Shown piece by piece: positions 19,861-53,149 of a DNA stretch of 64,000 nt. Source of the stretch: Paludibacter sp. (GTDB taxonomy: Bacteria; Bacteroidota; Bacteroidia; Bacteroidales; Paludibacteraceae). The translations under genes and the position numbers were made by a program. The notes below the pieces were generated by a model. It had not been told where the DNA came from, did no database searches, and saw nothing but the letters and a program-made list of their open reading frames with translations. Numbering within the stretch: the stretch's first letter is position 1; every line of letters starts with the position of its first letter. The stretch spans positions 51,456 to 115,455 of the forward strand of contig JAYFPG010000022.1 in the NCBI GenBank assembly GCA_034928085.1, written 5' to 3'.

Positions 19861-21243
19861 TCAATGGATTGTATGCTTCGGCTTCCAAACAAACAACGCC
19901 AGCACAAACGAAATAGTCGATGCGGCAATCCAGAAGGTGGCTGCCGGCATGAAGTTGTACTGAACATCGGCGCCCACAATCACTTTGTTACTCTCGATGA
20001 GCCATCCGCTGGCAATGTCCTGCAATCCGGCACCGATGTAACTGGCAATGCCCACGATGCCTAAGGCTGCTCCGCTGGCATTGCGCGGTACGAGGTCGAC
20101 AGCCATCAGTCCGCCAATGAAACAAATAAGTACCCCGATGGCAACGCCGAACAATACCATACTCAGTACATTTACCCAAACACTGTTACCCGAGAATACG
20201 AACAGACAAAGCGCGATGGTGTTGAGTACGCCGAAAATCAGCGCCGGGGCGTTGCGTTTGCCTTTGAAAAGCTTGTCGGAGAACCAGCCTGATAATACGG
20301 TTCCAAAAATACCCAGCAAAGCGTTGATGGAAATAATCTGTGTGGCAGAGGCTAAGGAGAAACCTTTGACTTCCTGCAAGTACAACACGCCCCAACCGTT
20401 AATCGCGTAACGGCTTACGTACATGAAGGCGCTTGAAAGGGCAATAATCCATACATAAGGGTTTTTCAATACTGCCTTTTGAGTTGCCGAAACCGATTTC
20501 TTCTCGACGGTTTTGGCTTCGCTGGACAAAATCTCAACGGGAGGTAAGCCCTTGCTTTGTGGAGTATCGTGCATGAGGAAAAGGATGATGACAACTCCGA
20601 GGATGCCGGCGAGTGATGAGCCGACGAACCCCCACTGCCATCCGGCGATACCCACCACAGCTCCCACGAAAATGAATGACAGGAACTCACCGATGTTGTG
20701 ACTGGCGCTGAAGAACCCGTAGAAAGTTCCGCGTTCTTTCAGCGGAAACCAGCGGGAGAGGGCAATGATGGCCGGTGCAGCGCCCATCGACTGTGACCAG
20801 CCGTTGATTCCCCACAGGATGGCGAAGGACAGAAAAAACACAAAGGAAGTGATGGCCATACCGTTACTGGAAGTGAAACCGAGTAGTCCCACTGCCAGGT
20901 TGGCAATTGCCGATACACCCAGACCGGCAGCCATAAAACGTTTTATATTGGAATGGTCGGCCAGAAACCCGTTTACGAACTTACCAATCGCGTAAGTAAA
21001 AAGAAGTGCAGAACCAATAATACCCAGTTGATGTGCGTCCAGCACGCCCGAATCGAGTATGGGCTTTTTAACCACATTCAGACTGGTACGGGCCACATAA
21101 TAAAGACTATACCCCAGCGTTCCCGCGATGAAACTTGAATAGCGAAGTTTATTGTAATACTTTTTTTGCGCCGCCGCATCGCCCTGAAAGGGCTGTTCGG
21201 CCGGAGCGCTCGTTTTGAAAAATGAGACGAACTGTTTGAGCAT
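19861..21243 (-). CDS. MFS organophosphate:phosphate antiporter (GlpT/UhpT/PgtP family)
   Basis: 12 TM pattern; YYVARTSLNV, GWSQSMG, RWFPLKERGT, SHNIG motifs of the OPA family; exact substrate not determinable. Confidence 0.88.
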   Translation of the reverse strand: MLKQFVSFFKTSAPAEQPFQGDAAAQKKYYNKLRYSSFIAGTLGYSLYYVARTSLNVVKKPILDSGVLDAHQLGIIGSALLFTYAIGKFVNGFLADHSNIKRFMAAGLGVSAIANLAVGLLGFTSSNGMAITSFVFFLSFAILWGINGWSQSMGAAPAIIALSRWFPLKERGTFYGFFSASHNIGEFLSFIFVGAVVGIAGWQWGFVGSSLAGILGVVIILFLMHDTPQSKGLPPVEILSSEAKTVEKKSVSATQKAVLKNPYVWIIALSSAFMYVSRYAINGWGVLYLQEVKGFSLASATQIISINALLGIFGTVLSGWFSDKLFKGKRNAPALIFGVLNTIALCLFVFSGNSVWVNVLSMVLFGVAIGVLICFIGGLMAVDLVPRNASGAALGIVGIASYIGAGLQDIASGWLIESNKVIVGADVQYNFMPAATFWIAASTISFVLALFVWKPKHTIH

Positions 21244-21329
21244 GATTCTATTTTAAAGTTAATGATGTAATTTGCCACTCCTTCAATACACGTTTGAAAG
21301 ACAAATTACCCAAGTGTTGGATAGTTTTT

Positions 21330-23162
21330 TTAGTTTAATTTAACAGTGTTTGTCCTGCCAGTTTGTACCTTACCAACAAATGCTGCGGTTTTGATAAGGT
21401 CCCCTTTATTTACCTCTAATGGTTTTTTATAAGGAGTCGATTGTCTGGTAGGATCAGTTCCGTCAGTTGTATAAAACAACTCAGCATTGGGCAGGTCAAT
21501 TTTTATTACCAGCTTTTTAGGGTATGAACTACTTCTGCGGTCGTAATAAAATATTGGTTCATAAAACGCCTGACTGTAATTCATGCCCCAATGACTCATT
21601 CTATTGAACATTTGTAATACACCAGTTTTGAATGTATCGTAGTTTTTGTTCGCTGATAACGTCCATCCAACTTCGGATAGAGCGAATGCACGTGGAAAAG
21701 TTTGTTCGGCCACACGTTCCGGTGTTTTCATATATTCCGTCCATACATTTCCTTGTACTCCAATGATAAATTGATGTTGTTCTTCCGTAAGTTTTTCGGT
21801 GTATGGCTCGTAATGATAAACAGTCTCAAGGGGTAAGAATCTTTTTCGTCCGAAATCATATTCGTCTAATTCTCCGCCAAGCTGTGAGTAATCGAAATAG
21901 CAATAGGTGTTTGGGCTCATAATAACCTGATGTTTTTGCGATGCAGCGGCTATTCCTCCTGCTTCTCCGCGCCACGACATTACTGTTGCATTGGGTGCCA
22001 CTCCTCCTTCTAAAATTTCATCCCAGCCGATAATTTGTTTCCCATGCTGATTCAGGTATTTCTCAATTTCAGTTATGAAATAACTTTGCAATTCATCTTC
22101 GTTTTTCAGACCTTTATCATTGATGAGTTGTTGGCAATGAGTACAGGATTTCCACGACTCTTTCGGACATTCATCACCTCCTATATGATAATACTCAGAA
22201 GGAAATATATCAAATAATTCATCAAAGACTCCTTTAAGAAATTCAAACGTAGCGGGTTTAGGACAAAACACTTCGCTAAAGACGCCCCAACGTTCACCTA
22301 CCTTGTATTCTTTTTCAGGTAAACAGGATAATTCAGGATATGAGGCTATGGCTGCCAATGCATGACCGGGAAGTTCAATTTCAGGAATAACAGTGATAAA
22401 GCGCTCAGCGGCATAACGTACAACTTCCCTGGCATCGTCCTGTGTATAGAATCCTTCGTGTGGAGTCTCATCATAGACACGGTCTTTCCAGTTTCCTATT
22501 GCAGTCCTGGCTCTTTTGCTGCCAATCTCAGTCAGAAAAGGGTATTTTTTTATTTCGATTCGCCAGCCCTGATCTTCAGTTAAATGCCAGTGAAATCGGT
22601 TTATCTTACACAATGCAAGTACGTCTAAGTACCTTTTAATGAAATCAACCGGCATAAAATGACGTCCTGTATCCAACATGATTCCCCTGTATGCAAAACG
22701 GGGAGAATCTTTGACTGTGATACACGGCAATTTCACAGTGCTGCGTTTAGTTACAATGCAGCCAAATACAGTCACGGGGAATAATTGCAACAGTGTTTGC
22801 GTGGCATAAAATGCACCCGCGGGAGAACCGTATGTAATCACAATTTCCTGAGTAGAGATTTTCATTTCGTATGCTTCTTCCGACAATGTTTTTTCATGTA
22901 CAAATCGAATCTGGTTTTTGCCGGGGATATTTTTTTGTGCAGATTTTATCCAGATATTTGTGCCGTTTTGTACGCGTTCCGAAAAAAGTGTTGCAATGGG
23001 GCCTATGACACTGTCTGTATATGAAATCAGGGTTTTATCATTGACTGTAAATTTTTTTGTTTCGAATTGTATGAATGCCGGTTCAGGTATAACCCTGGGT
23101 TGATTAGTTGATAATAAGGTCTGTTGAACAAAAAAAAGAAACGCGAACAAAATAATTCTCAT
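21330..23162 (-). CDS. GH20 beta-N-acetylhexosaminidase with C-terminal chitobiase/Fn3-like domain
   Basis: MLDTGRHF, HWHLTEDQGWR, HIGGDE, VQGNVWTEY; YTTDGTDP C-domain. Confidence 0.93.
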   Translation of the reverse strand: MRIILFAFLFFVQQTLLSTNQPRVIPEPAFIQFETKKFTVNDKTLISYTDSVIGPIATLFSERVQNGTNIWIKSAQKNIPGKNQIRFVHEKTLSEEAYEMKISTQEIVITYGSPAGAFYATQTLLQLFPVTVFGCIVTKRSTVKLPCITVKDSPRFAYRGIMLDTGRHFMPVDFIKRYLDVLALCKINRFHWHLTEDQGWRIEIKKYPFLTEIGSKRARTAIGNWKDRVYDETPHEGFYTQDDAREVVRYAAERFITVIPEIELPGHALAAIASYPELSCLPEKEYKVGERWGVFSEVFCPKPATFEFLKGVFDELFDIFPSEYYHIGGDECPKESWKSCTHCQQLINDKGLKNEDELQSYFITEIEKYLNQHGKQIIGWDEILEGGVAPNATVMSWRGEAGGIAAASQKHQVIMSPNTYCYFDYSQLGGELDEYDFGRKRFLPLETVYHYEPYTEKLTEEQHQFIIGVQGNVWTEYMKTPERVAEQTFPRAFALSEVGWTLSANKNYDTFKTGVLQMFNRMSHWGMNYSQAFYEPIFYYDRRSSSYPKKLVIKIDLPNAELFYTTDGTDPTRQSTPYKKPLEVNKGDLIKTAAFVGKVQTGRTNTVKLN

Positions 23163-40859: not shown

Positions 40860-40906
40860 GCGCAAGCATTGCGCCCCTACAGTTATTCACTATTCGCTAT
40901 TCGCTA
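40860..40906 (-). repeat. GTAG-type REP-like palindrome plus heptamer tandem repeat
   Basis: Minus strand reads TAGCGAA-TAGCGAA-TAGTGAA-TA (40884-40906), then GTAG-GGGCGCAA-TGC-TTGCGC (40860-40880). Confidence 0.55.
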
Positions 40907-41746
40907 CTCCGGCGTCTTTCCTTCCTGATACTCGCCCAACAATTGAAAATCCTTCAATAACGGCCTGACAGCATCCAACGATTGACGGTAACGTTCGTAA
41001 TTGTCAAAAGTCAGGCTGATGTAAAACTGGTATTCCCATTCTCTTCCAACAATGGGCAGGGATTGAATCTTGGTCAGGTTTACGCGGTAAAACGACAAGA
41101 TCGAAAGCACTTTGGCCAGACTTCCTTCTTCGTGTGGAAGTGTGAATACCATTGATGATTTGTTTAGTTTGATATGCTGAATCATTTTTTCAGCCAGTTC
41201 TGGTGCAGCTACAATCAGAAAACGGGTAAAATTCCGTTTGTTTGTCTCAATTTCATCCGCGATGATTTCAAGCCCGTATTTCTCAGCGGCAAACCTGCTA
41301 CAAATGGCTGCTCTTCCCATGATGTTGTTTTCTGCAATTTCTTTAGCTGAAAGGGCGGTGTCATCACTTTCCACTGCCCTCAGGTGATGATGCTTATCAA
41401 TAAATTCCTCACATTGCATCAGGGCAATGGGATGGGAGTGTACCTCCTTTATATCATTGATACTTTGTCCGGGCATCGCGGCAAGTGTATGGGAAATCCG
41501 GAGTTTATGCTCCCCGATAATTACATTTCCGCTTTCTTTTAAAAGATTGTGGTTCTGCAGTAAGCTTCCGGCTATGGTGTTCTCTATGGCAACAATCCCG
41601 AGAAGTTCAGGGTCTTCAGCCATTTTGCTGAAAACATCTCTGAATGTTACACAGGGTTCAATCTCAATCGCTTCAGCTTTGAAGAATTCCCGCGCTGCAA
41701 TTTCATGAAATGCACCACTTACACCTTGTATTGCTATTCTTTTCAT
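40904..41746 (-). CDS. pheA: Prephenate dehydratase (PDT + ACT domain)
   Basis: IAIQGVSGAFH, IENTIAG, SHPIALMQC, NFTRFL, LTKIQSLP. Confidence 0.93.
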   Translation of the reverse strand: MKRIAIQGVSGAFHEIAAREFFKAEAIEIEPCVTFRDVFSKMAEDPELLGIVAIENTIAGSLLQNHNLLKESGNVIIGEHKLRISHTLAAMPGQSINDIKEVHSHPIALMQCEEFIDKHHHLRAVESDDTALSAKEIAENNIMGRAAICSRFAAEKYGLEIIADEIETNKRNFTRFLIVAAPELAEKMIQHIKLNKSSMVFTLPHEEGSLAKVLSILSFYRVNLTKIQSLPIVGREWEYQFYISLTFDNYERYRQSLDAVRPLLKDFQLLGEYQEGKTPE

Positions 41747-41759
41747 ACTTGTTGATATT

Positions 41760-41793
41760 AAAAAAAATCCTGCTCATTTTGTTGAGCAGGATT
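41760..41793 (-). terminator. Attenuator terminator in the pheA leader
   Basis: Minus strand AATCCTGCTCA-ACAAAA-TGAGCAGGATT-TTTTTT, perfect 11-bp stem, ending 14 nt before the pheA start. Confidence 0.85.
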
Positions 41794-41842
41794 CTATTCG
41801 TGTATCTTTTTATTATTAATAGTACATACAATTATCCTGCTC

Positions 41843-41893
41843 TCACCTTTTAAAGTAAAAGTAAAAATAAAAGTATGTAAAAAATCGTGTCAT
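41843..41893 (-). CDS. pheL: Phe/Tyr-rich leader peptide MTRFFTYFYFYFYFKR
   Basis: Manual translation ATG(41893)...TGA(41843): 6 Phe and 4 Tyr in 16 codons; antiterminator arm GAGCAGGAT (41834-41842) directly after the stop. Confidence 0.85.
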   Translation of the reverse strand: MTRFFTYFYFYFYFKR

Positions 41894-41912
41894 TTTCGTT
41901 TTGTTTTCGATG

Positions 41913-41920
41913 CAAAAGTA
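41913..41920 (-). promoter_or_regulatory. -7 element (TACTTTTG) of the phe leader promoter
   Basis: TAnnTTTG consensus, 20 bp upstream of the leader ATG. Confidence 0.65.
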
Positions 41921-42092
41921 ATACTTTTTCAATAAACTGCAATTTTTTCTGAAAATATTTTTTCTATTGTGGGTTCATACGGTGAATTATGCAATTTATC
42001 TATGCCTGAAATTTCAGAAAAAAGTACTTTTGGACTCAAAACACCTCAAAAGCCCTCTGTTTAAAAGGCTTTCAGTAGATTTTATTAAAAAT

Positions 42093-42136
42093 CTAACAAA
42101 GTTTTATCAAAGTTCTAACAAAGTTCTAACAAAAAA
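42093..42136. repeat. Four 11-bp tandem direct repeats (ctaacaaagtt consensus)
   Basis: ctaacaaagtt ttatcaaagtt ctaacaaagtt ctaacaaaaaa. Confidence 0.75.
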
Positions 42137-42176: not shown

Positions 42177-42692
42177 TTAACGCGAAAAAAGTGATAATTT
42201 TTTTATCGGAGCAAAAATTCTTTCAATTAATCTCCGGTTTTCGGTGATAATTTCTGCAGTTGCCGACAAATTTCCACTCATTTGCAGCTCCTTTTTGCTA
42301 CTTGTCACTAATTTCTCACCAATTTGTACCTCCACGAGGTAGCTTCCACGTTCCTGTGTCGGTGAAATTTGTCGGGTAATACCATTGATATGTCCAAACT
42401 CCAGGTAGGGATAAGCAGTCATTTTCAGGATTACCTGTTGACCTGACTGAATCTTACCCGCTCCGCTTGCAGGGACTTCTACGAGTGCAATCCATTCATT
42501 GTTAGTGTTTTGTATAGATGCTTCACCGCTTATAATGTCAGGGTAATTGAAAAAGAAACTGCCGGCAATGAGGATGGCCAGAATGGCACAGATAACGGAT
42601 GTTCCGTATCGGATGAGCGCCTTCGGTGGCCTGGCTAAGATTTCCTGTACCTCCCGACTCCTGAGTTCTATATTATTGCCTTCCGGATTCAT
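42177..42692 (-). CDS. Short HlyD-like adaptor lacking the central coiled-coil
   Basis: ELRSREVQEIL.RPP..LIR.G + TM + YPDIISGE N-terminus, joined directly to the GKIQSGQ.V...PYLEFG...AEIITE.RRLIERI C-terminal barrel; only 171 aa. Confidence 0.78.
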   Translation of the reverse strand: MNPEGNNIELRSREVQEILARPPKALIRYGTSVICAILAILIAGSFFFNYPDIISGEASIQNTNNEWIALVEVPASGAGKIQSGQQVILKMTAYPYLEFGHINGITRQISPTQERGSYLVEVQIGEKLVTSSKKELQMSGNLSATAEIITENRRLIERIFAPIKKLSLFSR

Positions 42693-42708
42693 GTCTTTTT
42701 ATATTCTC

Positions 42709-44928
42709 TTACAGTTCAAGTTGGTTCTTAACTAAATGATAATAAGCGCCTTTCTTCTTTGTGAGACTTTCATGGGTTCCTGTTTCAACAATTTCCCCAT
42801 TGTCAAGCACCACGATTTGATCTGCATTTTTCACGGTGCTGAGCCTATGTGCAATTACGACGGATGTCCTGCCTTCGAAGAATCTGCCTAAGTTGTCCAT
42901 GATGATTTTCTCATTGTTCGTGTCCAATGCGTTGGTTGCTTCATCTAAAAACACGAACTCCGGATTCTTGTAAATTGCTCTGGCAATGAGGATTCTCTGC
43001 TTCTGACCCTGACTGAGCGCATGTCCTTCAGATCCAATTTTAGTATCGTATTTTGATGATAAAGTTTCGATGAAGGGTCTGATATTGGCCGTATTAACTG
43101 CGTTCAACAGCCTGTCTTTGTCTATTTCTTCGTCACCTGGTGCAATATTCCTTGCTATACTGTCGGTAAAGATGTATCCTTCCTGCATCACTACACCACA
43201 ATTTTTTCTCCATTCACGCATGTTGTAGTGTGATAAACTGTTGCTGCCCAGGAATATATGTCCCTGTTGTGGTTTGTAAAACCCCAGCAGGAGTTTCATC
43301 ATGGTAGTTTTACCACTTCCACTCATTCCCACAATGGCAGTCTGTTTCCCGGAGGGAATATGAAGGTTTATGTTTTTTAAAACGGGTTTTCCTGCTGAGG
43401 TTGTATCGTAAGCAAATGTCAGATTGTGGATTATAATGTCCTGTTTATCAGGGATGTTGTGGATCTGATCCGGATTATCTTCATCTTCATTGTCTTTGGT
43501 ATAAACCTCGCTGAGCCTTTCGATGCTAAGGCGTGCATCCTGTGACTCCCGGTAGAAGTGGATCAACTGATCAATTGGGCTATTTAGCTGGCCCAGAATG
43601 TATTGTACAGAGAGCATCATCCCCAAACTCATGTTTCCGTCAATCACAAACTTGGCAACTAAGGCAGTAATGATGATGTTTTTGGTTTGATTGATAAAAA
43701 TCGCTCCGGAATCCTGATACTGACTTAAAGCCAAACCTTTGATCCTCAGCTTGAAGAGTTTGGCCTGTATTCTTTCCCATTCCCATCTTTTCTGTTGTTC
43801 GCAGGCGTTCAGTTTGATTTCCTGCATGCCGGTAATAAGCTGAATTACATTGCTTTGATTAGCTGCTTGTTGTGCGAAGTTTTTGTGGTCGAGTGTTTCT
43901 CTTTTCTTCATAAACAGACTTACCCAAAAGAAATACAGGAGACTCCCCACTAAGAAAATCAGGAAAATTGTTACATTGTAAAACAAGAGTATTAAGGTGA
44001 ATATCACAATGTTAAACAGCCCAAACAGGATGTTCAGGGTAGAGTTTGTTAGGTAATTCTGAATGCGGGTATGGTCACCCATGCGTTGTAACAGATCACC
44101 GGTCATTTTGGTGTCGAAATAGCCCATGGGCAACCGCATCAGCTTAGCCAGAAAATCGGAAATCACCGAAATGTTGACGCGGGTTCCTATGTGCAATAGT
44201 ATCCAACCCCTGATGAATTCAACGGTTGAGGCGCTAAACACCAGAACTAACTGAGCAATCAGGACAAGATATATATAGCCTATGTTTTGTGCTGAGATTC
44301 CGAAATCTACTATAGACTGGGTGAGGAAGGGGAGTAAAAGTTGCAGCAGACTGCCAAAAAACAGTCCGAGAAACAACTGGAATATCAGTTTTTTGTAGGG
44401 TTTCAGGTAAGAAAAAAGAAATGAAAATCCTTTACTGGTATTGGTTTTGTCACTTTCTTTATTGAAAAACCCGGGAGTAGTTTCCAGCAGTAGGGCAATG
44501 CCTACATCTTCTCCGTCACTACGGGTGCTCAACCAGCAACGACAAAATTCTTCTTTGGTGTATTTCAGTTTTCCGGCTCCCGGATCTGCCACATAAATAA
44601 TATCTTTCCCGTTTTTTTCGCGGATGTCATAAACTACGACGAAATGTTGTTGGTTCCAGTGTACAATGCAGGGGAGGGGGGCTTCTTTCTTTAATTCTTC
44701 GAAGTTTACATAGACACCTACTGTACGGAAACCCAGTTTCTCAGCGGCTTCGCTGATGCCTAACAAGGAAACGCCTTCACGACTGAAGTGGGATTTTTCA
44801 CGGAGTCCTTCAAGGGAGTATTGCCTTCCATAGTGCGCTGCAATCATACGCAGGCAGGTCGGACCGCAATCCATGGCATCGTGTTGGTGGTAGAAGGGAA
44901 ATTTAGACATAGAGTTCATAATATTCAA
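42709..44928 (-). CDS. C39 peptidase-containing ABC transporter (PCAT; double-glycine peptide exporter)
   Basis: QHDAMDCGPTCL (catalytic Cys), HWNQQHFVV (His), VADP; TM domain; GMSGSGKT, LSQGQ, FLDEAT, IAHR. Confidence 0.95.
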   Translation of the reverse strand: MNIMNSMSKFPFYHQHDAMDCGPTCLRMIAAHYGRQYSLEGLREKSHFSREGVSLLGISEAAEKLGFRTVGVYVNFEELKKEAPLPCIVHWNQQHFVVVYDIREKNGKDIIYVADPGAGKLKYTKEEFCRCWLSTRSDGEDVGIALLLETTPGFFNKESDKTNTSKGFSFLFSYLKPYKKLIFQLFLGLFFGSLLQLLLPFLTQSIVDFGISAQNIGYIYLVLIAQLVLVFSASTVEFIRGWILLHIGTRVNISVISDFLAKLMRLPMGYFDTKMTGDLLQRMGDHTRIQNYLTNSTLNILFGLFNIVIFTLILLFYNVTIFLIFLVGSLLYFFWVSLFMKKRETLDHKNFAQQAANQSNVIQLITGMQEIKLNACEQQKRWEWERIQAKLFKLRIKGLALSQYQDSGAIFINQTKNIIITALVAKFVIDGNMSLGMMLSVQYILGQLNSPIDQLIHFYRESQDARLSIERLSEVYTKDNEDEDNPDQIHNIPDKQDIIIHNLTFAYDTTSAGKPVLKNINLHIPSGKQTAIVGMSGSGKTTMMKLLLGFYKPQQGHIFLGSNSLSHYNMREWRKNCGVVMQEGYIFTDSIARNIAPGDEEIDKDRLLNAVNTANIRPFIETLSSKYDTKIGSEGHALSQGQKQRILIARAIYKNPEFVFLDEATNALDTNNEKIIMDNLGRFFEGRTSVVIAHRLSTVKNADQIVVLDNGEIVETGTHESLTKKKGAYYHLVKNQLEL

Positions 44929-45032
44929 AGCGGCATAGCATAAAATCTCTTGATAATCAGTTGATTTCAGGAGGTTCTTGCAATAATGAATTATTGCTCG
45001 CTAAACCGCTTTAAAATTAGAGAATATTTTTG

Positions 45033-45143
45033 TTATACCCTAATTCTAATTCTTCTTCCGTCAGGTAATATGATATTTACATAATAACCACCTATGGTCT
45101 CATTTAATTGCTCAGGAGACATTTTTTTTAAATTTGTTTTCAT
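45033..45143 (-). CDS. Double-glycine-leader precursor peptide 3: MKTNLKKMSPEQLNETIGG-YYVNIILPDGRRIRIRV
   Basis: Manual translation; GG-leader pattern; homologous to peptides 1 and 2; immediately upstream of the PCAT. Confidence 0.85.
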   Translation of the reverse strand: MKTNLKKMSPEQLNETIGGYYVNIILPDGRRIRIRV

Positions 45144-45193
45144 CTTGTGTGTGTTTATTAGATAGATTGAAATAAAATCGTAGATTCATGAGT

Positions 45194-45304
45194 TTACACT
45201 CTAACTCTTACTACAGTACCATCAGGTAAAATGATATTTACATAATAACCACCTTTTGTCTCATTTAATTGTTCGGGAGACATATTTCTAAGATTTGTTT
45301 TCAT
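45194..45304 (-). CDS. Double-glycine-leader precursor peptide 2: MKTNLRNMSPEQLNETKGG-YYVNIILPDGTVVRVRV
   Basis: Manual translation; core identical in protein to peptide 1, with 4 synonymous codon differences. Confidence 0.87.
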   Translation of the reverse strand: MKTNLRNMSPEQLNETKGGYYVNIILPDGTVVRVRV

Positions 45305-45364
45305 TGTGTTTAATTTTTGTGTGTGTTAATGGATAAGTTTCTAATATGAAAGGGCTTTATGAGT

Positions 45365-45487
45365 TTATACCCTAACTCTTACTACAGTACCATCAGGTAA
45401 AATAATGTTTACATAATAGCCACCTTTAGAATCATTCAGTTGCTCAGTACTAAGTTTTCTGAATTTGTTTTCGTTAATTGTTTTCAT
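45365..45487 (-). CDS. Double-glycine-leader precursor peptide 1: MKTINENKFRKLSTEQLNDSKGG-YYVNIILPDGTVVRVRV
   Basis: Manual translation; LSTEQL...GG fits the LSxxELxxxxGG leader consensus. Confidence 0.87.
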   Translation of the reverse strand: MKTINENKFRKLSTEQLNDSKGGYYVNIILPDGTVVRVRV

Positions 45488-45537
45488 TGTTTTTATTATT
45501 AATTGGTTTGACATTCATATTGTTTTGTTTGACAATG

Positions 45538-45649
45538 CAATGTTAATACATTTATCTTTAATAAAAATGCTCAAAGTTTAACCAACTCTTCACTAAAGTT
45601 CTAAATAAAAGTCATTTGTTAGAAGTTTGATAAAAAAATTTTATCTTTG
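45538..45649. promoter_or_regulatory. Divergent promoter region between peptide operon and two-component system
   Basis: Imperfect -7 TAACATTG (minus, 45538-45545); aaagtt boxes 22 bp apart (45573, 45595); ttgttagaagtttgataaaa (45616-45635); -7 TATCTTTG (plus, 45642-45649). Confidence 0.55.
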
Positions 45650-45693
45650 TTGCGAATTATAATTCAGATTGTATTTATATTCATAACAATATC

Positions 45694-47040
45694 ATGTCAA
45701 CAAAAAACATCTCATATATTGCAATCATATCAATCATATTTATTCTGCTAACACAGAGTTATTTGGTTTATGATTACTTTCAAACAGTTCGTTTTGCGTT
45801 GATAAGGGAGTCTGATGCTATTTTGAAAGAAGCATTTAGAGGCGATTTGAATCAACGAAACCTGAAATATGTTAGTTTTACACAAATAAAAGAGGGCTCA
45901 GAATCAACGGTTGTCAATACAGAAAAAAATGAAATTGATTTTGACATGCGTGAAAATTCAATGGATAAAGAAAGTATATTGAACAAGTTTGACATTGTGA
46001 TGCATGTTTTTATTAGTAAAGTAATACCGCTTGATTTACATAGAATTGATAGCATAACGGGTCAGATTCTTCGTTCACGAAATATCAATTCAGATTATTC
46101 AATCCAACTGATAAACCCTAAAACCCAAGAAGTATTAGCAAGTTCAAAAGATTATGCCAGCAGTTCTTTTCTTGTGATACCTTCACAATTATATCCGCTT
46201 GATTTTGAGGAAAAGGAAGCATTACAGTTGGTTCTGATTAATCCTTTTTCAGAGATTATGAAGCGAATGGCGCTCATGTTACTGGGTTCGATTGTGTTTT
46301 CAGTAATTTCGTTGCTGGCTTTCAGGTTCCTGATTATAACATTAGCCAAACAAAAGAAGTTGGTGAAGTTTAAAAATGAGTTTTTAAGTAATATTGCCCA
46401 CGAATTAAAACGTCCTGTTTCGAGCCTGATTGTGAATTTAGATTGCCTAAAAGAGCCCGAAATGTTCGAAAATGTTGGTATGCGCGATATGATGTTGAAT
46501 AATTCGGTGAACTCCCTGACAGAGCTGAATGGAACCATCAGTATGATTGTAGGTTTGGCAAAGGTGGAAGAAGGCTTGCTGGTGCTGAACAAGCTGCCTG
46601 TTAACCTCGTTAAACTCATAGATGATCTGAAGACGAGGTTCATCAGTTCTCTTACCAAGAAAATAACAATAACTACTCATTACGAAGCGGATGAGATTAT
46701 CGTGACCGGAGATGGGTTGATGTTGACACAATGTTTTGCCAATTTAATTGATAATTCAATCAAATATTCAAAACAACAGGTTAGTGTTGATATTAGTGTG
46801 TCGGTGCACGCGAATGCAGTAGAATTGAATTTTAAAGATAATGGTATTGGTATACCAGCAGAAAAGATAAACAATATTTTTGAAAAGTACTCGCGGGTTG
46901 ATAACAATGTTAAAGTCAATGGTTTCGGAATCGGACTCAATTATGTGAAAACAATTATTGAGAAACATGGAGGAAGCATTGGGGTAACCAGTGAATTGGG
47001 TGTGGGTTCTAACTTTAAAATAATTTTGCCAAATAAATAA
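45694..47040 (+). CDS. Membrane sensor histidine kinase (2 TM, periplasmic sensor, HisKA-HATPase)
   Basis: NIAHELKRP (H box), NLIDNSIKYS (N), KDNGIGI (G1), GFGIGL (G2). Confidence 0.94.
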   Translation: MSTKNISYIAIISIIFILLTQSYLVYDYFQTVRFALIRESDAILKEAFRGDLNQRNLKYVSFTQIKEGSESTVVNTEKNEIDFDMRENSMDKESILNKFDIVMHVFISKVIPLDLHRIDSITGQILRSRNINSDYSIQLINPKTQEVLASSKDYASSSFLVIPSQLYPLDFEEKEALQLVLINPFSEIMKRMALMLLGSIVFSVISLLAFRFLIITLAKQKKLVKFKNEFLSNIAHELKRPVSSLIVNLDCLKEPEMFENVGMRDMMLNNSVNSLTELNGTISMIVGLAKVEEGLLVLNKLPVNLVKLIDDLKTRFISSLTKKITITTHYEADEIIVTGDGLMLTQCFANLIDNSIKYSKQQVSVDISVSVHANAVELNFKDNGIGIPAEKINNIFEKYSRVDNNVKVNGFGIGLNYVKTIIEKHGGSIGVTSELGVGSNFKIILPNK

Positions 47041-47047
47041 GACACAA

Positions 47048-47755
47048 ATGAAAAAGATCTTGGTTGTAGAAGATGATCTAAATCTGGGAACCGCTTTAGT
47101 CGGATTCTTAGAAATGCAAAAGTATGAGGTTTACTATGTAAGCAATGGGGATGAAGCCATTGCTGAATTTCAGCAGTTTTCTCCCGATCTGGTTACACTG
47201 GACGTAATGCTGAATTGTAGTGTTGATGGTTTTGAAATTGCGCGTAAAATCAGAAAATTCAGTGATGTGCCCATTATTTTCACGACCTCACGTGATGGTA
47301 ATGAGGATTATGAAATCGGATTCGGTATTGAGAACAGTGATTACGTCCGGAAGCCATACCGCTTGGTTGAGTTAATGCTCCGGATAAATAAAATGGTAGA
47401 AGCCGAAATGACTTCTTCTTCGGCTGCCAATGATAACCAGTTTAGGATAGGCAGGTTCAAATTCTTCCCTGATGAGCAGTCACTTAAGTTCGATAAGGGT
47501 GATATTCATTTGAATCACTTAGATTCCGTGGTGTTGGCTTTACTATGCCGGAACAAGGGTAACTTTATGTCTCGTGAAGAAATTATCAAGATTGTCTGGC
47601 AGGTTGAGGAGACCAGTTCCAAGGAAGCCGCACTGTATAATTCTATTTCCAGACTGAAGAAATATCTTTACAATGACGATCAGGTTGTAATTGAGAATAA
47701 GATTCGTTTGGGTATCCGTCTCCGGGATTATGAAGAAGGAGAAAAGCGGGAATAA
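47048..47755 (+). CDS. OmpR/PhoB-family response regulator
   Basis: ILVVEDD, LDVML (phospho-Asp), DYVRKP; winged-helix C-terminus (SREEIIKIVW...SISRLKKYL...IRLGIRL). Confidence 0.92.
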   Translation: MKKILVVEDDLNLGTALVGFLEMQKYEVYYVSNGDEAIAEFQQFSPDLVTLDVMLNCSVDGFEIARKIRKFSDVPIIFTTSRDGNEDYEIGFGIENSDYVRKPYRLVELMLRINKMVEAEMTSSSAANDNQFRIGRFKFFPDEQSLKFDKGDIHLNHLDSVVLALLCRNKGNFMSREEIIKIVWQVEETSSKEAALYNSISRLKKYLYNDDQVVIENKIRLGIRLRDYEEGEKRE

Positions 47756-50956: not shown

Positions 50957-53149
50957 TTATATGAGTCTTTTTGCCTGAATTACTTTCTTGCCCGAAATAT
51001 ACTCAAAAGAATCGAGACCCTGTTGGTTTATTTTGATTTTACTTTTAGCCAGAATTGATTTTCTTCCAAAGGTTGTAATGGTAATCTCAGTTCTAATCTC
51101 AATTTCAGAGGTATCAAGCATATGATCAATTTTTTCAACTTTCTCACAATAACCCGCCTTCAGGAAATTAAAAAATGGTGCAGTGAAGTCGTTTAGACTG
51201 CTTATCAGCTTCTTATTCTCCAGTAAATGAATCGGGATATTATCATTTATCGGTATATTGCTGTCTGATAATAGTATTTTATAAGCAGATAAGAAAAAAT
51301 AATAAAGCAACGATTTGCGGTTTCCGTAGAACGCTGTAAAATAGAACATCATGTTGTCGCAGGTATAGTAAGCAACTGCATCTGTTTCCCGGCTGTGGAG
51401 GTATTTGTAGTTCAATGCATCTGTATATGCATCCCAATGTTCTGTCTTTTCGTTACCCTTCTCATCCCGGGTATATATTTTCAGACCGGTATCTGGTAAT
51501 AGGTTGAACGCGTTAAACAGGAAGGGTTGCTGACGCAGGTTGGCAACTAAGGTTTTTTCCACTGGTATTGAGAATTGTTCCAGACGTTTATGCTGTAAGT
51601 TGATAAAATAAGAGATGGGGTAATCAACCGTTTTTGAACCGATGACCGGATAATGTTGCAGTTGAAAATGCAGGTGTGGATAAGGTGAGCGTCCTGAGTT
51701 TCCACATTGCGCCACTGCATCTCCACATTTTACGAAATCCCCCTTTTTTACCTTAACTGAACCCTTTTTAAGATGTGAGAGTTGTGAATATAAACCGGTT
51801 ATGTGTTGAATGACAAGGCTGTTCCCCCAGTTATTAGTCGTGTTGACTTCACCAATAGCATTGTCTTCGATATGATCGACAATATCCACGATGAACCCAT
51901 CAGCTGGAGCCGTAACCGGTTTTCCGTAGCAATAATAATCCTCACATGTCAGACCGGCTGATTTGTAGGATTTTCCTTCTTCATTCAGGATCATGAAATC
52001 AAATGCTTTGCCCCATTCATCTTTATGGGTAAATGCGCCATCATGTCCCTGAGTTACTGTCCATTCTCCCCAGAATGGCAGTTGCACCGGATGGTACAAA
52101 AACCGGTTCAGCCGTTCTTTGTTGTTCAAATATGCATATAAATTCGTTTCAGGCGAATAATGCTGAATGGGTGTGAGAATCAATTTCTTCTGATTGTTCC
52201 GCTGTTGCAGGAAATGTACAAACAGGATTGTGATGATGGAGTAGGGCAGCGAAAAAACCGGAAGTTGTATCAAACTAAAGAGTTTTGTGAAAAAAACCAG
52301 CACGATGGATGTCAGCGGAACCAACAGGATGGTCCAGAAATAGGATGATTTTGATGGTATGACAAAGAATCCACCCATGGCAATGGCAACCATCATGAAA
52401 TTCGCCCCAATATTATAATAGGTAATGCTGGCAGCTTCCGATCCGGAGAATTGAGCAAAGATATAGGCTGATATAAAGCCGATTACTGATAATGAAAAAA
52501 ATATGCGAGAACTGATGAGTAAGGCAATGGCAATGACAATGCCGGTTATCAGGTTGTTCTGGAAGAAAATAGAACTCAGTGAACGCAAATAAATTTCGAG
52601 TAAGCTGTTTAATTCCCAGGATTCGATGTATTGGTAAATAGAGAGCAGTGAGTTTCCGCCTACTGAATACAATTCGTTAATCCAGAATATGTTACGTTGG
52701 GTCAGACCAAGATTCTCATACAGGGAGGATGGAAGCACGACAAACCAGAAAGCCAAAATAAACGGGATACTCAGATAGGGTAGACCATATTTAAACAACC
52801 ACCCACCCAATGCAACCGATAATATCAGCGTAAGCACCGACGAAAGCGCGAGCAGGGTAAAAAAAACGATACCCGGGTCGAAGAAAGTCCCCAGGCCGAT
52901 ACCGGTTATCAATGCATTAAAGCTTAATACGCCATTGCGTAGCTGAACCTTATCAAAACCTAAGGAGTTTGCCAGCAAAACAGCTATAAGTACCGCAATC
53001 AATCCACTCAATCCTGCATAGAAATTGAGGAAAGTAGCCACCATGACTGCTATTGCCATGAAACGGTTATTCAGAAAAAAGATGATGGAATAACTGTTTA
53101 AGATGGCCGGGAGAATTGTTTCACGGGTGTTTTTGAATGTATCTTTCAA
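50957..53149 (-). CDS. Urea-transporter-like membrane domain fused to an M23 peptidase-like domain
   Basis: Hydrophobic N-half (NSYSIIFF, SSIFFQNN..TG, LPVFSLP); soluble HKDEWGKAFDF, GKPVTAPADG, WGNSLVIQH, YSQLSHL, GNSGRS..PHLHFQLQ; TTG start. Confidence 0.78.
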   Translation of the reverse strand: MKDTFKNTRETILPAILNSYSIIFFLNNRFMAIAVMVATFLNFYAGLSGLIAVLIAVLLANSLGFDKVQLRNGVLSFNALITGIGLGTFFDPGIVFFTLLALSSVLTLILSVALGGWLFKYGLPYLSIPFILAFWFVVLPSSLYENLGLTQRNIFWINELYSVGGNSLLSIYQYIESWELNSLLEIYLRSLSSIFFQNNLITGIVIAIALLISSRIFFSLSVIGFISAYIFAQFSGSEAASITYYNIGANFMMVAIAMGGFFVIPSKSSYFWTILLVPLTSIVLVFFTKLFSLIQLPVFSLPYSIITILFVHFLQQRNNQKKLILTPIQHYSPETNLYAYLNNKERLNRFLYHPVQLPFWGEWTVTQGHDGAFTHKDEWGKAFDFMILNEEGKSYKSAGLTCEDYYCYGKPVTAPADGFIVDIVDHIEDNAIGEVNTTNNWGNSLVIQHITGLYSQLSHLKKGSVKVKKGDFVKCGDAVAQCGNSGRSPYPHLHFQLQHYPVIGSKTVDYPISYFINLQHKRLEQFSIPVEKTLVANLRQQPFLFNAFNLLPDTGLKIYTRDEKGNEKTEHWDAYTDALNYKYLHSRETDAVAYYTCDNMMFYFTAFYGNRKSLLYYFFLSAYKILLSDSNIPINDNIPIHLLENKKLISSLNDFTAPFFNFLKAGYCEKVEKIDHMLDTSEIEIRTEITITTFGRKSILAKSKIKINQQGLDSFEYISGKKVIQAKRLI

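Follow-up and report, generated by a model that had tools for sequence, protein, structure and literature searches.

Does a locus in a 64-kb stretch of DNA from Paludibacter (Bacteroidales) encode a peptide pheromone circuit of a kind that has so far been characterised only in Gram-positive bacteria? The stretch, hereafter the window, carries three short genes for precursors with leaders ending in GG, a peptidase-containing ABC transporter (PCAT), an export adaptor, and a divergent histidine kinase-response regulator pair; all positions given here are counted within it. Quorum sensing with a peptide pheromone and a two-component system is a textbook mode of Gram-positive bacteria, and we know of no cognate receptor identified for the GG-leader peptides of Gram-negative bacteria. 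Gram-negative species have been described as using small diffusible molecules for signalling (PMC8895600). An in silico screen by Dirix et al. (2004), as cited in PMC8939145, predicted GG peptides in Gram-negative bacteria, and it has been suggested that genes for signalling close to GG precursors in Bacteroidales clusters for ribosomally made peptides with post-translational modifications (RiPPs) "could indicate" signalling (PMC10352776). Beyond that general speculation, our literature searches turned up no description of a peptide-kinase pair for signalling in Bacteroidota, in agreement with a sequence-only reading of the window, which had named the locus as a candidate without a characterised equivalent. 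With moderate confidence, we read the locus as a Paludibacter module for autoinducing peptide signalling that exists in allelic specificity groups (pherotypes). The whole case is one of comparative inference from sequences.

The seven genes of the circuit were all found where the sequence-only reading had put them, and the arrangement that it had described held throughout. Specifically, three GG-leader peptide genes on the minus strand were followed by the PCAT gene and the gene for a 171-aa adaptor, and the genes for the histidine kinase and an OmpR-family regulator ran divergently on the plus strand. Peptide gene 1 and the kinase gene shared an intergenic region of 206 bp, which had been put at about 200 bp. 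The names on cluster members and on related contigs, which came from digester, wastewater, and groundwater communities, supported the placement of the window in Paludibacter. Transcripts from the locus were present in sludge metatranscriptomes, where the evidence of expression consisted of assembled contigs only.

To define the family, species-representative genomes and metagenomes were searched with a kinase alignment, and 63 loci were recovered in which the kinase was 38-100% identical to that of the window. Since the scans for the family relied on two short motifs of the kinase, they may have overlooked relatives outside Paludibacteraceae. The family size was taken from these DNA-level scans because word-indexed protein searches with the sensor, which returned 7 and 12 mostly fragmentary matches, missed known full-length orthologues. 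At least one GG-leader peptide gene was located divergently upstream of the kinase gene in 58 of the 63 loci; the two open reading frames (ORFs) were a median of 165 nt apart (range, 23-586). Likewise, all peptide-encoding contigs that were long enough also carried the divergent kinase and regulator genes. The five exceptions were a truncated contig (L028), a decayed locus (L031), and three loci that had the promoter and no peptide ORF (L030, L052, and L061). The flanking genes differed and represented at least six chromosomal contexts (aspC/pheA, SusC/D-DUF4302, rpoA/rplQ, fabI, purL, DUF6261/TonB-type receptor, and ABC/DUF5687). Thus, the linkage of the kinase and regulator to the peptides in other genomes, on which the sequence-only reading had staked its proposal, was borne out in several contexts. 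The more distant loci, half of the family, had no adjacent exporter and still kept the peptide-kinase-regulator triad. Because the triad was kept across contexts and without an adjacent exporter, the conserved unit was the peptide, the kinase, and the regulator.

The comparison of close relatives revealed an allelic "pherotype" cassette of about 1.2 kb (45030-46250) that ran from the peptide array through the intergenic promoters into the kinase gene, of which it took in the 5' third. The nucleotide identity of the window to L005 or L001 was 96-100% outside approximately 45,030-46,250. Inside the cassette, it fell to 57-84% relative to L005 and, relative to L001, to values as low as 5% per 100-nt segment, and the edges were sharp. 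Synonymous divergence (dS) was about 1-3, which is saturated, inside the cassette compared to 0.007-0.03 outside. The ratio of nonsynonymous to synonymous divergence (dN/dS) was 0.17-0.32 in the sensor and at most 0.02 in the region next to transmembrane helix 1 (TM1), where dS was equally saturated. Since dS was saturated even in the frozen TM1 region, the cassettes were old alleles moved by recombination and not products of recent fast evolution.

At the protein level, loci of close relatives bearing different peptide alleles had regulators that were 97-99.6% identical, PCATs that were about 98% identical, and adaptors that were about 95% identical, but kinases that were just 73-97% identical. 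The kinase differences were concentrated in the periplasmic domain. In particular, a hypervariable segment at codons 49-160 (45838-46173, plus strand), the presumed ligand-specificity region, was 41-69% identical between loci with cytoplasmic domains that were 95-100% identical. Three loci (L010, L021, and L001) had cytoplasmic domains (residues 219-448) that were 100% identical, with a dS of 0.007-0.028, and yet residues 49-160 were 41-64% identical and the three cores were different. Similarly, the cytoplasmic domains of L013 and L024 were 97.8% identical, whereas the sensors were 52% identical and the cores differed. The converse was observed with the window and L010, which had a common core and sensors that were 98% identical on different backbones (cytoplasmic dS of 0.43). 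Judging from these alignments, divergence at the protein level fell mainly in the peptide core and the periplasmic domain. Core and sensor segregated together on near-identical backbones, as would be expected of pherotypes and as a proposed check of co-variation had anticipated; both were located in one linkage block. The reading of the genes as coincidental neighbours was rejected on the synteny and cassette evidence.

The cassette alleles were also visible in community data. Metatranscriptome contigs matched the conserved flanks and diverged exactly at the cassette, and one of them encoded a YYVIITLPN core in the place of peptide 3. In one groundwater metagenome, rough contig depths were about 22-24 for the flanks, about 10 for the window-type cassette, and about 6 and 3.5 for alternative cassettes, which suggests that several cassette alleles coexist in one groundwater community. 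An allelic cassette of this structure is known from the agr hypervariable region and from the comCD and blpCH pherotypes.

The three peptide genes of the window were all on the minus strand. Peptide 1 (45365-45487) was 40 aa long, with leader MKTINENKFRKLSTEQLNDSKGG and core YYVNIILPDGTVVRVRV. Its start was the ATG used in homologues, and a 49-aa ORF from 45514 was the longest possible reading. Peptide 2 (45194-45304; 36 aa) had leader MKTNLRNMSPEQLNETKGG and a core identical to that of peptide 1 (YYVNIILPDGTVVRVRV), and peptide 3 (45033-45143; 36 aa) had leader MKTNLKKMSPEQLNETIGG and a variant core, YYVNIILPDGRRIRIRV. All three precursors had a 17-aa core after GG, and all three leaders ended in GG. 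Of the conserved hydrophobic positions of GG-leader precursors (-7, -12, and -4), -7 was Leu and -12 was Leu or Met in these leaders, whereas the residue at -4 was Ser or Thr and not hydrophobic. The array was not called as a tandem repeat by Tandem Repeats Finder, since outside the cores its copies were too diverged.

The peptide family was very small (10 clusters among 5.8 billion proteins). About 37 distinct cores were found across it, and nearly all of them were 17 aa long and had a central (P/S)(D/N)G between alternating hydrophobic residues, as in VWVDVKNSDGTTTQIWV, QWIEITNSDGTITRVWV, and ETITVIGPDGKPITIII. This pattern is probably that of a short autonomous beta-hairpin with two 7-residue strands around a PDG or PNG turn. 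The cores lacked Cys, and their net charge ranged from +3 to -1 across the family. A pair of major and variant peptides recurred in at least five allele groups: in the groups of the window and L010, L005, L001, L022, and L027, the PCAT-proximal peptide was a variant that differed from the repeated major copy at 1-4 core positions. The core in single-copy loci resembled the variant type, and the copy number ranged from 1 to 4 inside one allele group.

Peptide 1 matched TIGR04149, the model of radical-SAM-modified GG-leader peptides of Bacteroidetes, only weakly and in the leader region only (E of 0.005; 16.8 bits, below the cutoff of 25). No radical-SAM maturase gene was found at the locus, and no gene for a modification enzyme was found between pheA and aspC. 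The RiPP reading was rejected because maturase genes were absent.

The properties of the peptides bear directly on a second explanation of the locus, namely, that the 17-mers are primarily antimicrobial beta-hairpins used against competitors, with the two-component system controlling their production and the peptide possibly acting as its own inducer, as in the case of nisin and NisRK. The PCAT and adaptor, the multiple structural genes, the more cationic variant copy (+3), and the amphipathic, net positive cores of the window clade are all compatible with such an autoinduced bacteriocin. A HisKA kinase with an extracytoplasmic domain and an OmpR-type regulator are also found in lantibiotic autoinduction, and allelic diversity is equally typical of bacteriocin loci. 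However, the cores of the distant clade were net negative, and there was no immunity gene in or next to the window operon; a DUF5652 gene, described below, was found in one allele group only. The charge range of the family, the lack of Cys, and the lack of an immunity-like gene in the operon argue against a generic cationic antimicrobial. In addition, the peptide was linked to the kinase and not to the exporter, and diversification centred on the periplasmic domain of the receptor, a pattern that would not be predicted if the peptide were purely a toxin. We consider a bacteriocin function unlikely.

The promoters of the two operons differed in a way that fits the signalling module. The Bacteroidetes -7 consensus is TAnnTTTG. 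The peptide operon had an imperfect match to it, TAACATTG (45538-45545, minus strand), and upstream of this element were four boxes phased at 11 bp, TTAGAACTTTA, GTGAAGAGTTG, GTTAAACTTTG, and AGCATTTTTAT (45561-45604, minus strand). The boxes were located at -59, -48, -37, and -26 relative to the -7 element, where a -33 element would be expected. OmpR/PhoB-type regulators bind direct repeats at a spacing of about 11 bp, and boxes that replace the -33 element are a classical activation layout. When 32 loci were aligned on the -7-like element TAAYATTGC, this element was kept in almost all of them, and the four box positions were occupied in every clade; the distant clade reads TGAGAAnnTTG four times. 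Thus, phylogenetic footprinting upheld the earlier proposal of an imperfect -7 element with repeat boxes in an activator-like position.

The kinase-regulator operon had a perfect -7 element, TATCTTTG (45642-45649, plus strand), which was located 52 nt upstream of the kinase ATG and was invariant across all window-clade loci. Two 11-bp boxes, TTTGTTAGAAG and TTTGATAAAAA (45615-45636, plus strand), were directly upstream of it. In the distant clade, the kinase promoter also had a perfect element, TACTTTTG, and three boxes came after it in the 5' leader. An autoinducing loop would be expected to pair a constitutive receptor with an activator-dependent signal operon, as these elements suggest.

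A second array of four to five near-perfect boxes (TTTGTTAGAAC, TTTGTTAGAAC, TTTGATAAAAC, TTTGTTAGATT, and so on; 42079-42133, minus strand) began 44 nt past the adaptor stop codon. This 3' array had the orientation of the operon and was kept in every window-clade locus, including L027, L013, L029, and L025. A terminator-like hairpin (AAAGCC..GGCTTTT; 42048-42072, minus strand), read from the sequence, closed the operon, and analogous hairpins followed the array in L025 and L026. A tighter box dimer had 5 matches in the 64-kb window compared to 0.22 expected, and these were confined to the 3' array and the kinase promoter. Arrays of at least three boxes were found only at the 3' end of the operon and in peptide promoters in the 612 kb scanned. 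No -7 element at the spacing of the peptide promoter and no small gene were found downstream of the 3' array in the window or L027. The array may titrate the regulator and thereby set a threshold, may serve as a roadblock or insulator toward the pheA operon, or may loop to the 5' sites.

The 448-aa kinase (45694-47040, plus strand) had Pfam HisKA (PF00512) and HATPase_c domains and two transmembrane helices. Its order was TM1, a periplasmic alpha/beta domain of about 160 aa, TM2, HisKA, and HATPase_c, which left no room for HAMP. The 235-aa regulator (47048-47755, plus strand) belonged to the OmpR/PhoB family (Response_reg, E of 1e-18; Trans_reg_C, E of 5e-8). An AlphaFold model of kinase residues 1-232, built on an 11-sequence alignment (10 homologues), had a predicted local distance difference test score (pLDDT) of 76 and a predicted template modelling score of 0.61, and an attempt at the whole kinase from a single sequence was unusable (pLDDT of 35). 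The model consisted of a TM1-plus-stalk helix to about residue 68, a loop at 67-91, two helices, a four-stranded sheet at 134-182, and TM2. The loop was modelled with low confidence and was the most variable stretch. As modelled, the sensor looks like a small mixed alpha/beta periplasmic domain, to which no family was assigned.

The 733-aa exporter (42709-44910, minus strand) was identified as a PCAT on the basis of Pfam C39, ABC_membrane, and ABC_tran domains and a match to TIGR01193 (E of 2e-127). Its N-terminal Peptidase_C39 cysteine peptidase domain (E of 4e-35) covered profile positions 2-121 of 133 and contained the DCGPTC motif, and the protein aligned over its full length to PCAT1 (4ry2; E of 1e-112) and ComA (8hf4; E of 6e-97). 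The last peptide gene and the PCAT gene were separated by a 108-nt spacer (44925-45032, minus strand) that formed a structured RNA in folding predictions, with a minimum free energy of -32.1 kcal/mol and a z score of -4.6. The fold paired the sequence around the PCAT start region, and the spacer RNA may be an attenuator or a processing site that sets the ratio of peptide to exporter.

The adaptor gene (42177-42692, minus strand) was located where an adaptor had been noted, but its 171-aa product was a truncated HlyD protein, here called mini-HlyD, and not a full-length HlyD/membrane fusion protein. It had an N-terminal transmembrane helix and a C-terminal beta-barrel, and its only match to TIGR01843 was at positions 315-413, the last quarter of the HlyD model. 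Residues 2-61 and 58-171 of the adaptor corresponded to residues 5-64 and 322-435 of the 435-aa HlyD in the sister locus L027. This alignment indicates that the lipoyl and alpha-helical hairpin domains (about 65-321) were cleanly missing. These are the domains that reach the outer-membrane channel in tripartite exporters. The short form was kept in the clade (close relatives were 95% identical and distant ones 50-60%), and about 25 of the best 150 database representatives were HlyD-family adaptors of 165-197 aa that had the transmembrane helix and beta-barrel only. The short adaptor was conserved in the clade and recurrent in the database; it was neither an artefact of sequencing nor a recently formed pseudogene, and mini-HlyD may be a widespread, overlooked form. 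PCAT clusters without a detectable membrane fusion protein have been noted in Bacteroidales (PMC10352776).

The mini-adaptor leads to a third explanation. Because such an adaptor cannot reach an outer-membrane channel, PCAT would release the peptide into the periplasm of the producer itself, where the kinase would read a private signal or a gauge of secretion load. The missing lipoyl and hairpin domains, a locus with no outer-membrane factor gene, and a sensor domain that is itself periplasmic all fit this cell-autonomous feedback. On the other hand, it offers no obvious reason for many ancient, divergent peptide and sensor alleles, several of them coexisting in one sample, and the sister locus L027 had a full-length HlyD with the same circuit. 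We regard cell-autonomous feedback as improbable.

In the autoinducing signalling module that we favour, the consensus promoter of the kinase-regulator operon would maintain a basal level of receptor. The three precursors would be cleaved after GG and exported by PCAT, as its homologues suggest, and the mature product would be an unmodified 17-residue peptide, probably a beta-hairpin from its sequence pattern. Linkage and co-diversification point to the periplasmic alpha/beta domain of the cognate kinase as the place where the peptide would bind. The phosphorylated OmpR-type regulator would then bind the four phased boxes next to the defective -7 element and activate the weak promoter of the peptide-PCAT-adaptor operon, which would close a positive feedback loop. 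Core and sensor are inherited as an ancient cassette of about 1.2 kb that recombines between near-identical genomes, so that strains would form mutually private signalling groups.

Several observations weigh against this model. First, the co-variation of core and sensor, which itself favours the model (the partial Mantel correlation given the cytoplasmic domain was 0.64, with a p of 0.001, among the nine closest alleles, and the reverse partial correlation was not significant), would come partly from linkage alone, since core and sensor were in one recombination block. It is the pattern of constraint, together with the existence of a cassette, that carries the co-variation case, not the correlation itself. 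Second, the peptide-promoter boxes of the window clade were degenerate, and the best boxes at the locus were those of the 3' array, a place without a recognised promoter. Third, a Foldseek search of the PDB with the sensor model found no significant neighbour (best E of 0.07). The weak matches, which included CzcS and other kinase sensor domains, were merely suggestive, and the fold therefore gives no argument for peptide binding. Fourth, it is not obvious how a 2-kDa peptide would pass the outer membrane, inward or outward, given an adaptor without its docking domain. Fifth, no output gene was found beyond the module itself. Finally, parts of the family may be degenerating. The three loci that had a box-bearing promoter and no peptide ORF (L030, L052, and L061) are putative orphan receptors; L031 (6480-6680 and 8788-9249) had a peptide gene with stops in frame and, inserted between the kinase and regulator genes, an IS200-like gene; and L050 (1696-2298) had a fossil ORF in which the end of the C39 domain was fused to the end of the adaptor.

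The remaining explanation, in which the kinase senses some other periplasmic cue and switches on production of a peptide that is not its ligand, fits the fact that regulator-type boxes at the peptide promoter show regulation and not ligand identity, as well as the fold search, which gave no peptide-binding fold, but we consider it very improbable since a common cue would conserve the sensor, yet the sensor was the most variable part of the locus and changed whenever the core changed on otherwise identical backbones.

A stronger form of the signalling model is that the locus encodes a true cell-to-cell ribosomal-peptide pheromone in a diderm, the first for Bacteroidota. An unmodified 17-residue beta-hairpin would cross the outer membrane and be read by an undescribed periplasmic sensor domain, and the pherotype cassettes would be under balancing selection and shuffled by recombination. 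We find this form plausible and hold it tentatively. If it is true, then the system would also have new design features, namely, an exporter adaptor stripped of its hairpin and a 3' array of high-affinity boxes that is maybe a decoy or threshold device.

The sequence-only reading had likened the locus to the ComABCDE and Blp layout. The likeness holds for the circuit, which is analogous, and does not extend to homology. As in ComC/ComAB/ComDE and BlpC/BlpAB/BlpHR of Streptococcus, a GG-leader peptide is predicted to be processed and exported by a PCAT, the peptide gene adjoins the kinase and regulator genes, tandem direct repeats are located at an activator-dependent promoter with positive feedback (which the promoter architecture suggests here), and peptide and receptor change together in allelic pherotypes. 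In contrast, the Com/Blp kinases are polytopic HPK10 proteins with 5-7 transmembrane helices, whereas the kinase described here is a two-helix HisKA protein with a periplasmic domain of about 160 aa, and their regulators are LytTR proteins, whereas the regulator described here has an OmpR/PhoB winged helix (Trans_reg_C). The box period of 11 bp, the diderm host, the truncated HlyD, the second box array in the 3' end of the operon, and the lack of linked competence or bacteriocin output genes are further differences.

With regard to kinase and regulator class, the two-component system is closer to NisRK and SpaRK, which consist of an EnvZ-like kinase with two transmembrane helices and an extracytoplasmic loop and an OmpR-family regulator, as found here. 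In those systems, the kinase senses a secreted ribosomal peptide and the regulator activates the structural-gene promoter. The peptide described here differs from a lanthipeptide in that it is short and apparently unmodified, and the locus had no Lan enzymes and no immunity genes. The agr locus of Staphylococcus (agrB-agrD-agrC) has the same contiguous hypervariable block over the signal gene and the sensor part of the kinase, with conserved flanks and ancient alleles. Unlike agr, however, the Paludibacter locus had no AgrB-type processing or thiolactone (the cores lacked Cys), its kinase and regulator belonged to other families, and its genes were divergent and not in a single operon.

Among systems of Gram-negative bacteria, RaxX/RaxSTAB of Xanthomonas also combines a GG-leader peptide with a PCAT and a membrane fusion protein, but RaxX is sulfated and perceived by a plant receptor, and no role as a self-signal with a cognate bacterial kinase is known for it. 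Bacteroidetocins and other GG-leader peptides of Bacteroidota have GG-type leaders and PCAT export as well (PMC6671954 and PMC10352776). Those peptides act as toxins or are RiPP precursors and have no two-component system that is dedicated to them and diversifies with them, and the core family described here is distinct from them.

The locus and its approximately 60 relatives form a compact test case in which a synthesizable peptide, about 17 residues long, is paired with a single kinase and a single regulator, and the natural specificity variants are a ready-made ligand-receptor swap experiment. If the signalling module is confirmed, then peptide quorum sensing and pherotype biology would be extended to Bacteroidota, which are dominant in guts, digesters, and sediments, and a new peptide-binding sensor domain would be defined. 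Confirmation would also raise the question of how a 2-kDa peptide passes through the outer membrane and would provide orthogonal signal-receptor pairs for engineering of Bacteroidales.

Several genes recurred near the family loci. In the distant clade (L031, L033, L034, L047, L048, and L053), a DUF6261 protein of about 235 aa was encoded on the strand of the peptide gene, 0.5-0.7 kb downstream of it. A gene for an outer-membrane protein resembling CarboxypepD_reg/TonB-dependent receptors was often nearby, as in L033 (2306-4756), L035 (1816-4602), and L061 (5678-8161). It is possible that these neighbours are outputs or an outer-membrane route for the peptide. In other loci, genes for an ABC ATPase and a DUF5687 protein followed the regulator gene. 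Finally, L013 (11403-11627), L014, and L015 had a 187-aa adaptor and an extra gene for a 74-aa DUF5652 protein with two transmembrane helices between the 3' array and pheA. This gene was limited to these three loci, no remnant of it was found in the window, and its product could be immunity-like or accessory.

The flanks of the module contained features of their own. On the minus strand just upstream of pheA (40904-41746), positions 41760-41920 had the look of a classical leader-peptide attenuator, and this candidate element would serve a pheA-aminotransferase-DAHP synthase/chorismate mutase operon. It consisted of a perfect -7 element, TACTTTTG, a 16-codon ORF, MTRFFTYFYFYFYFKR (41893-41843), GAGCAGGAT segments with alternative pairings, and a 13-bp hairpin followed by a T8 terminator (41793-41760), and the z score of the fold was -8.0. 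A scan of the whole window with Rfam gathering thresholds called no RNA family, at the pheA attenuator or elsewhere. The element was conserved in L001, L005, L010, and L029. A second conserved flanking feature was a minus-strand gene (50957-53149) for a 730-aa protein with an unusual fusion of a urea-transporter-like membrane domain (PF03253) and Peptidase_M23, which was also found in L001, L010, and L013. Elsewhere in the window, positions 20001-22000 had a GC content of 0.46 compared to about 0.38-0.40 in the remainder.

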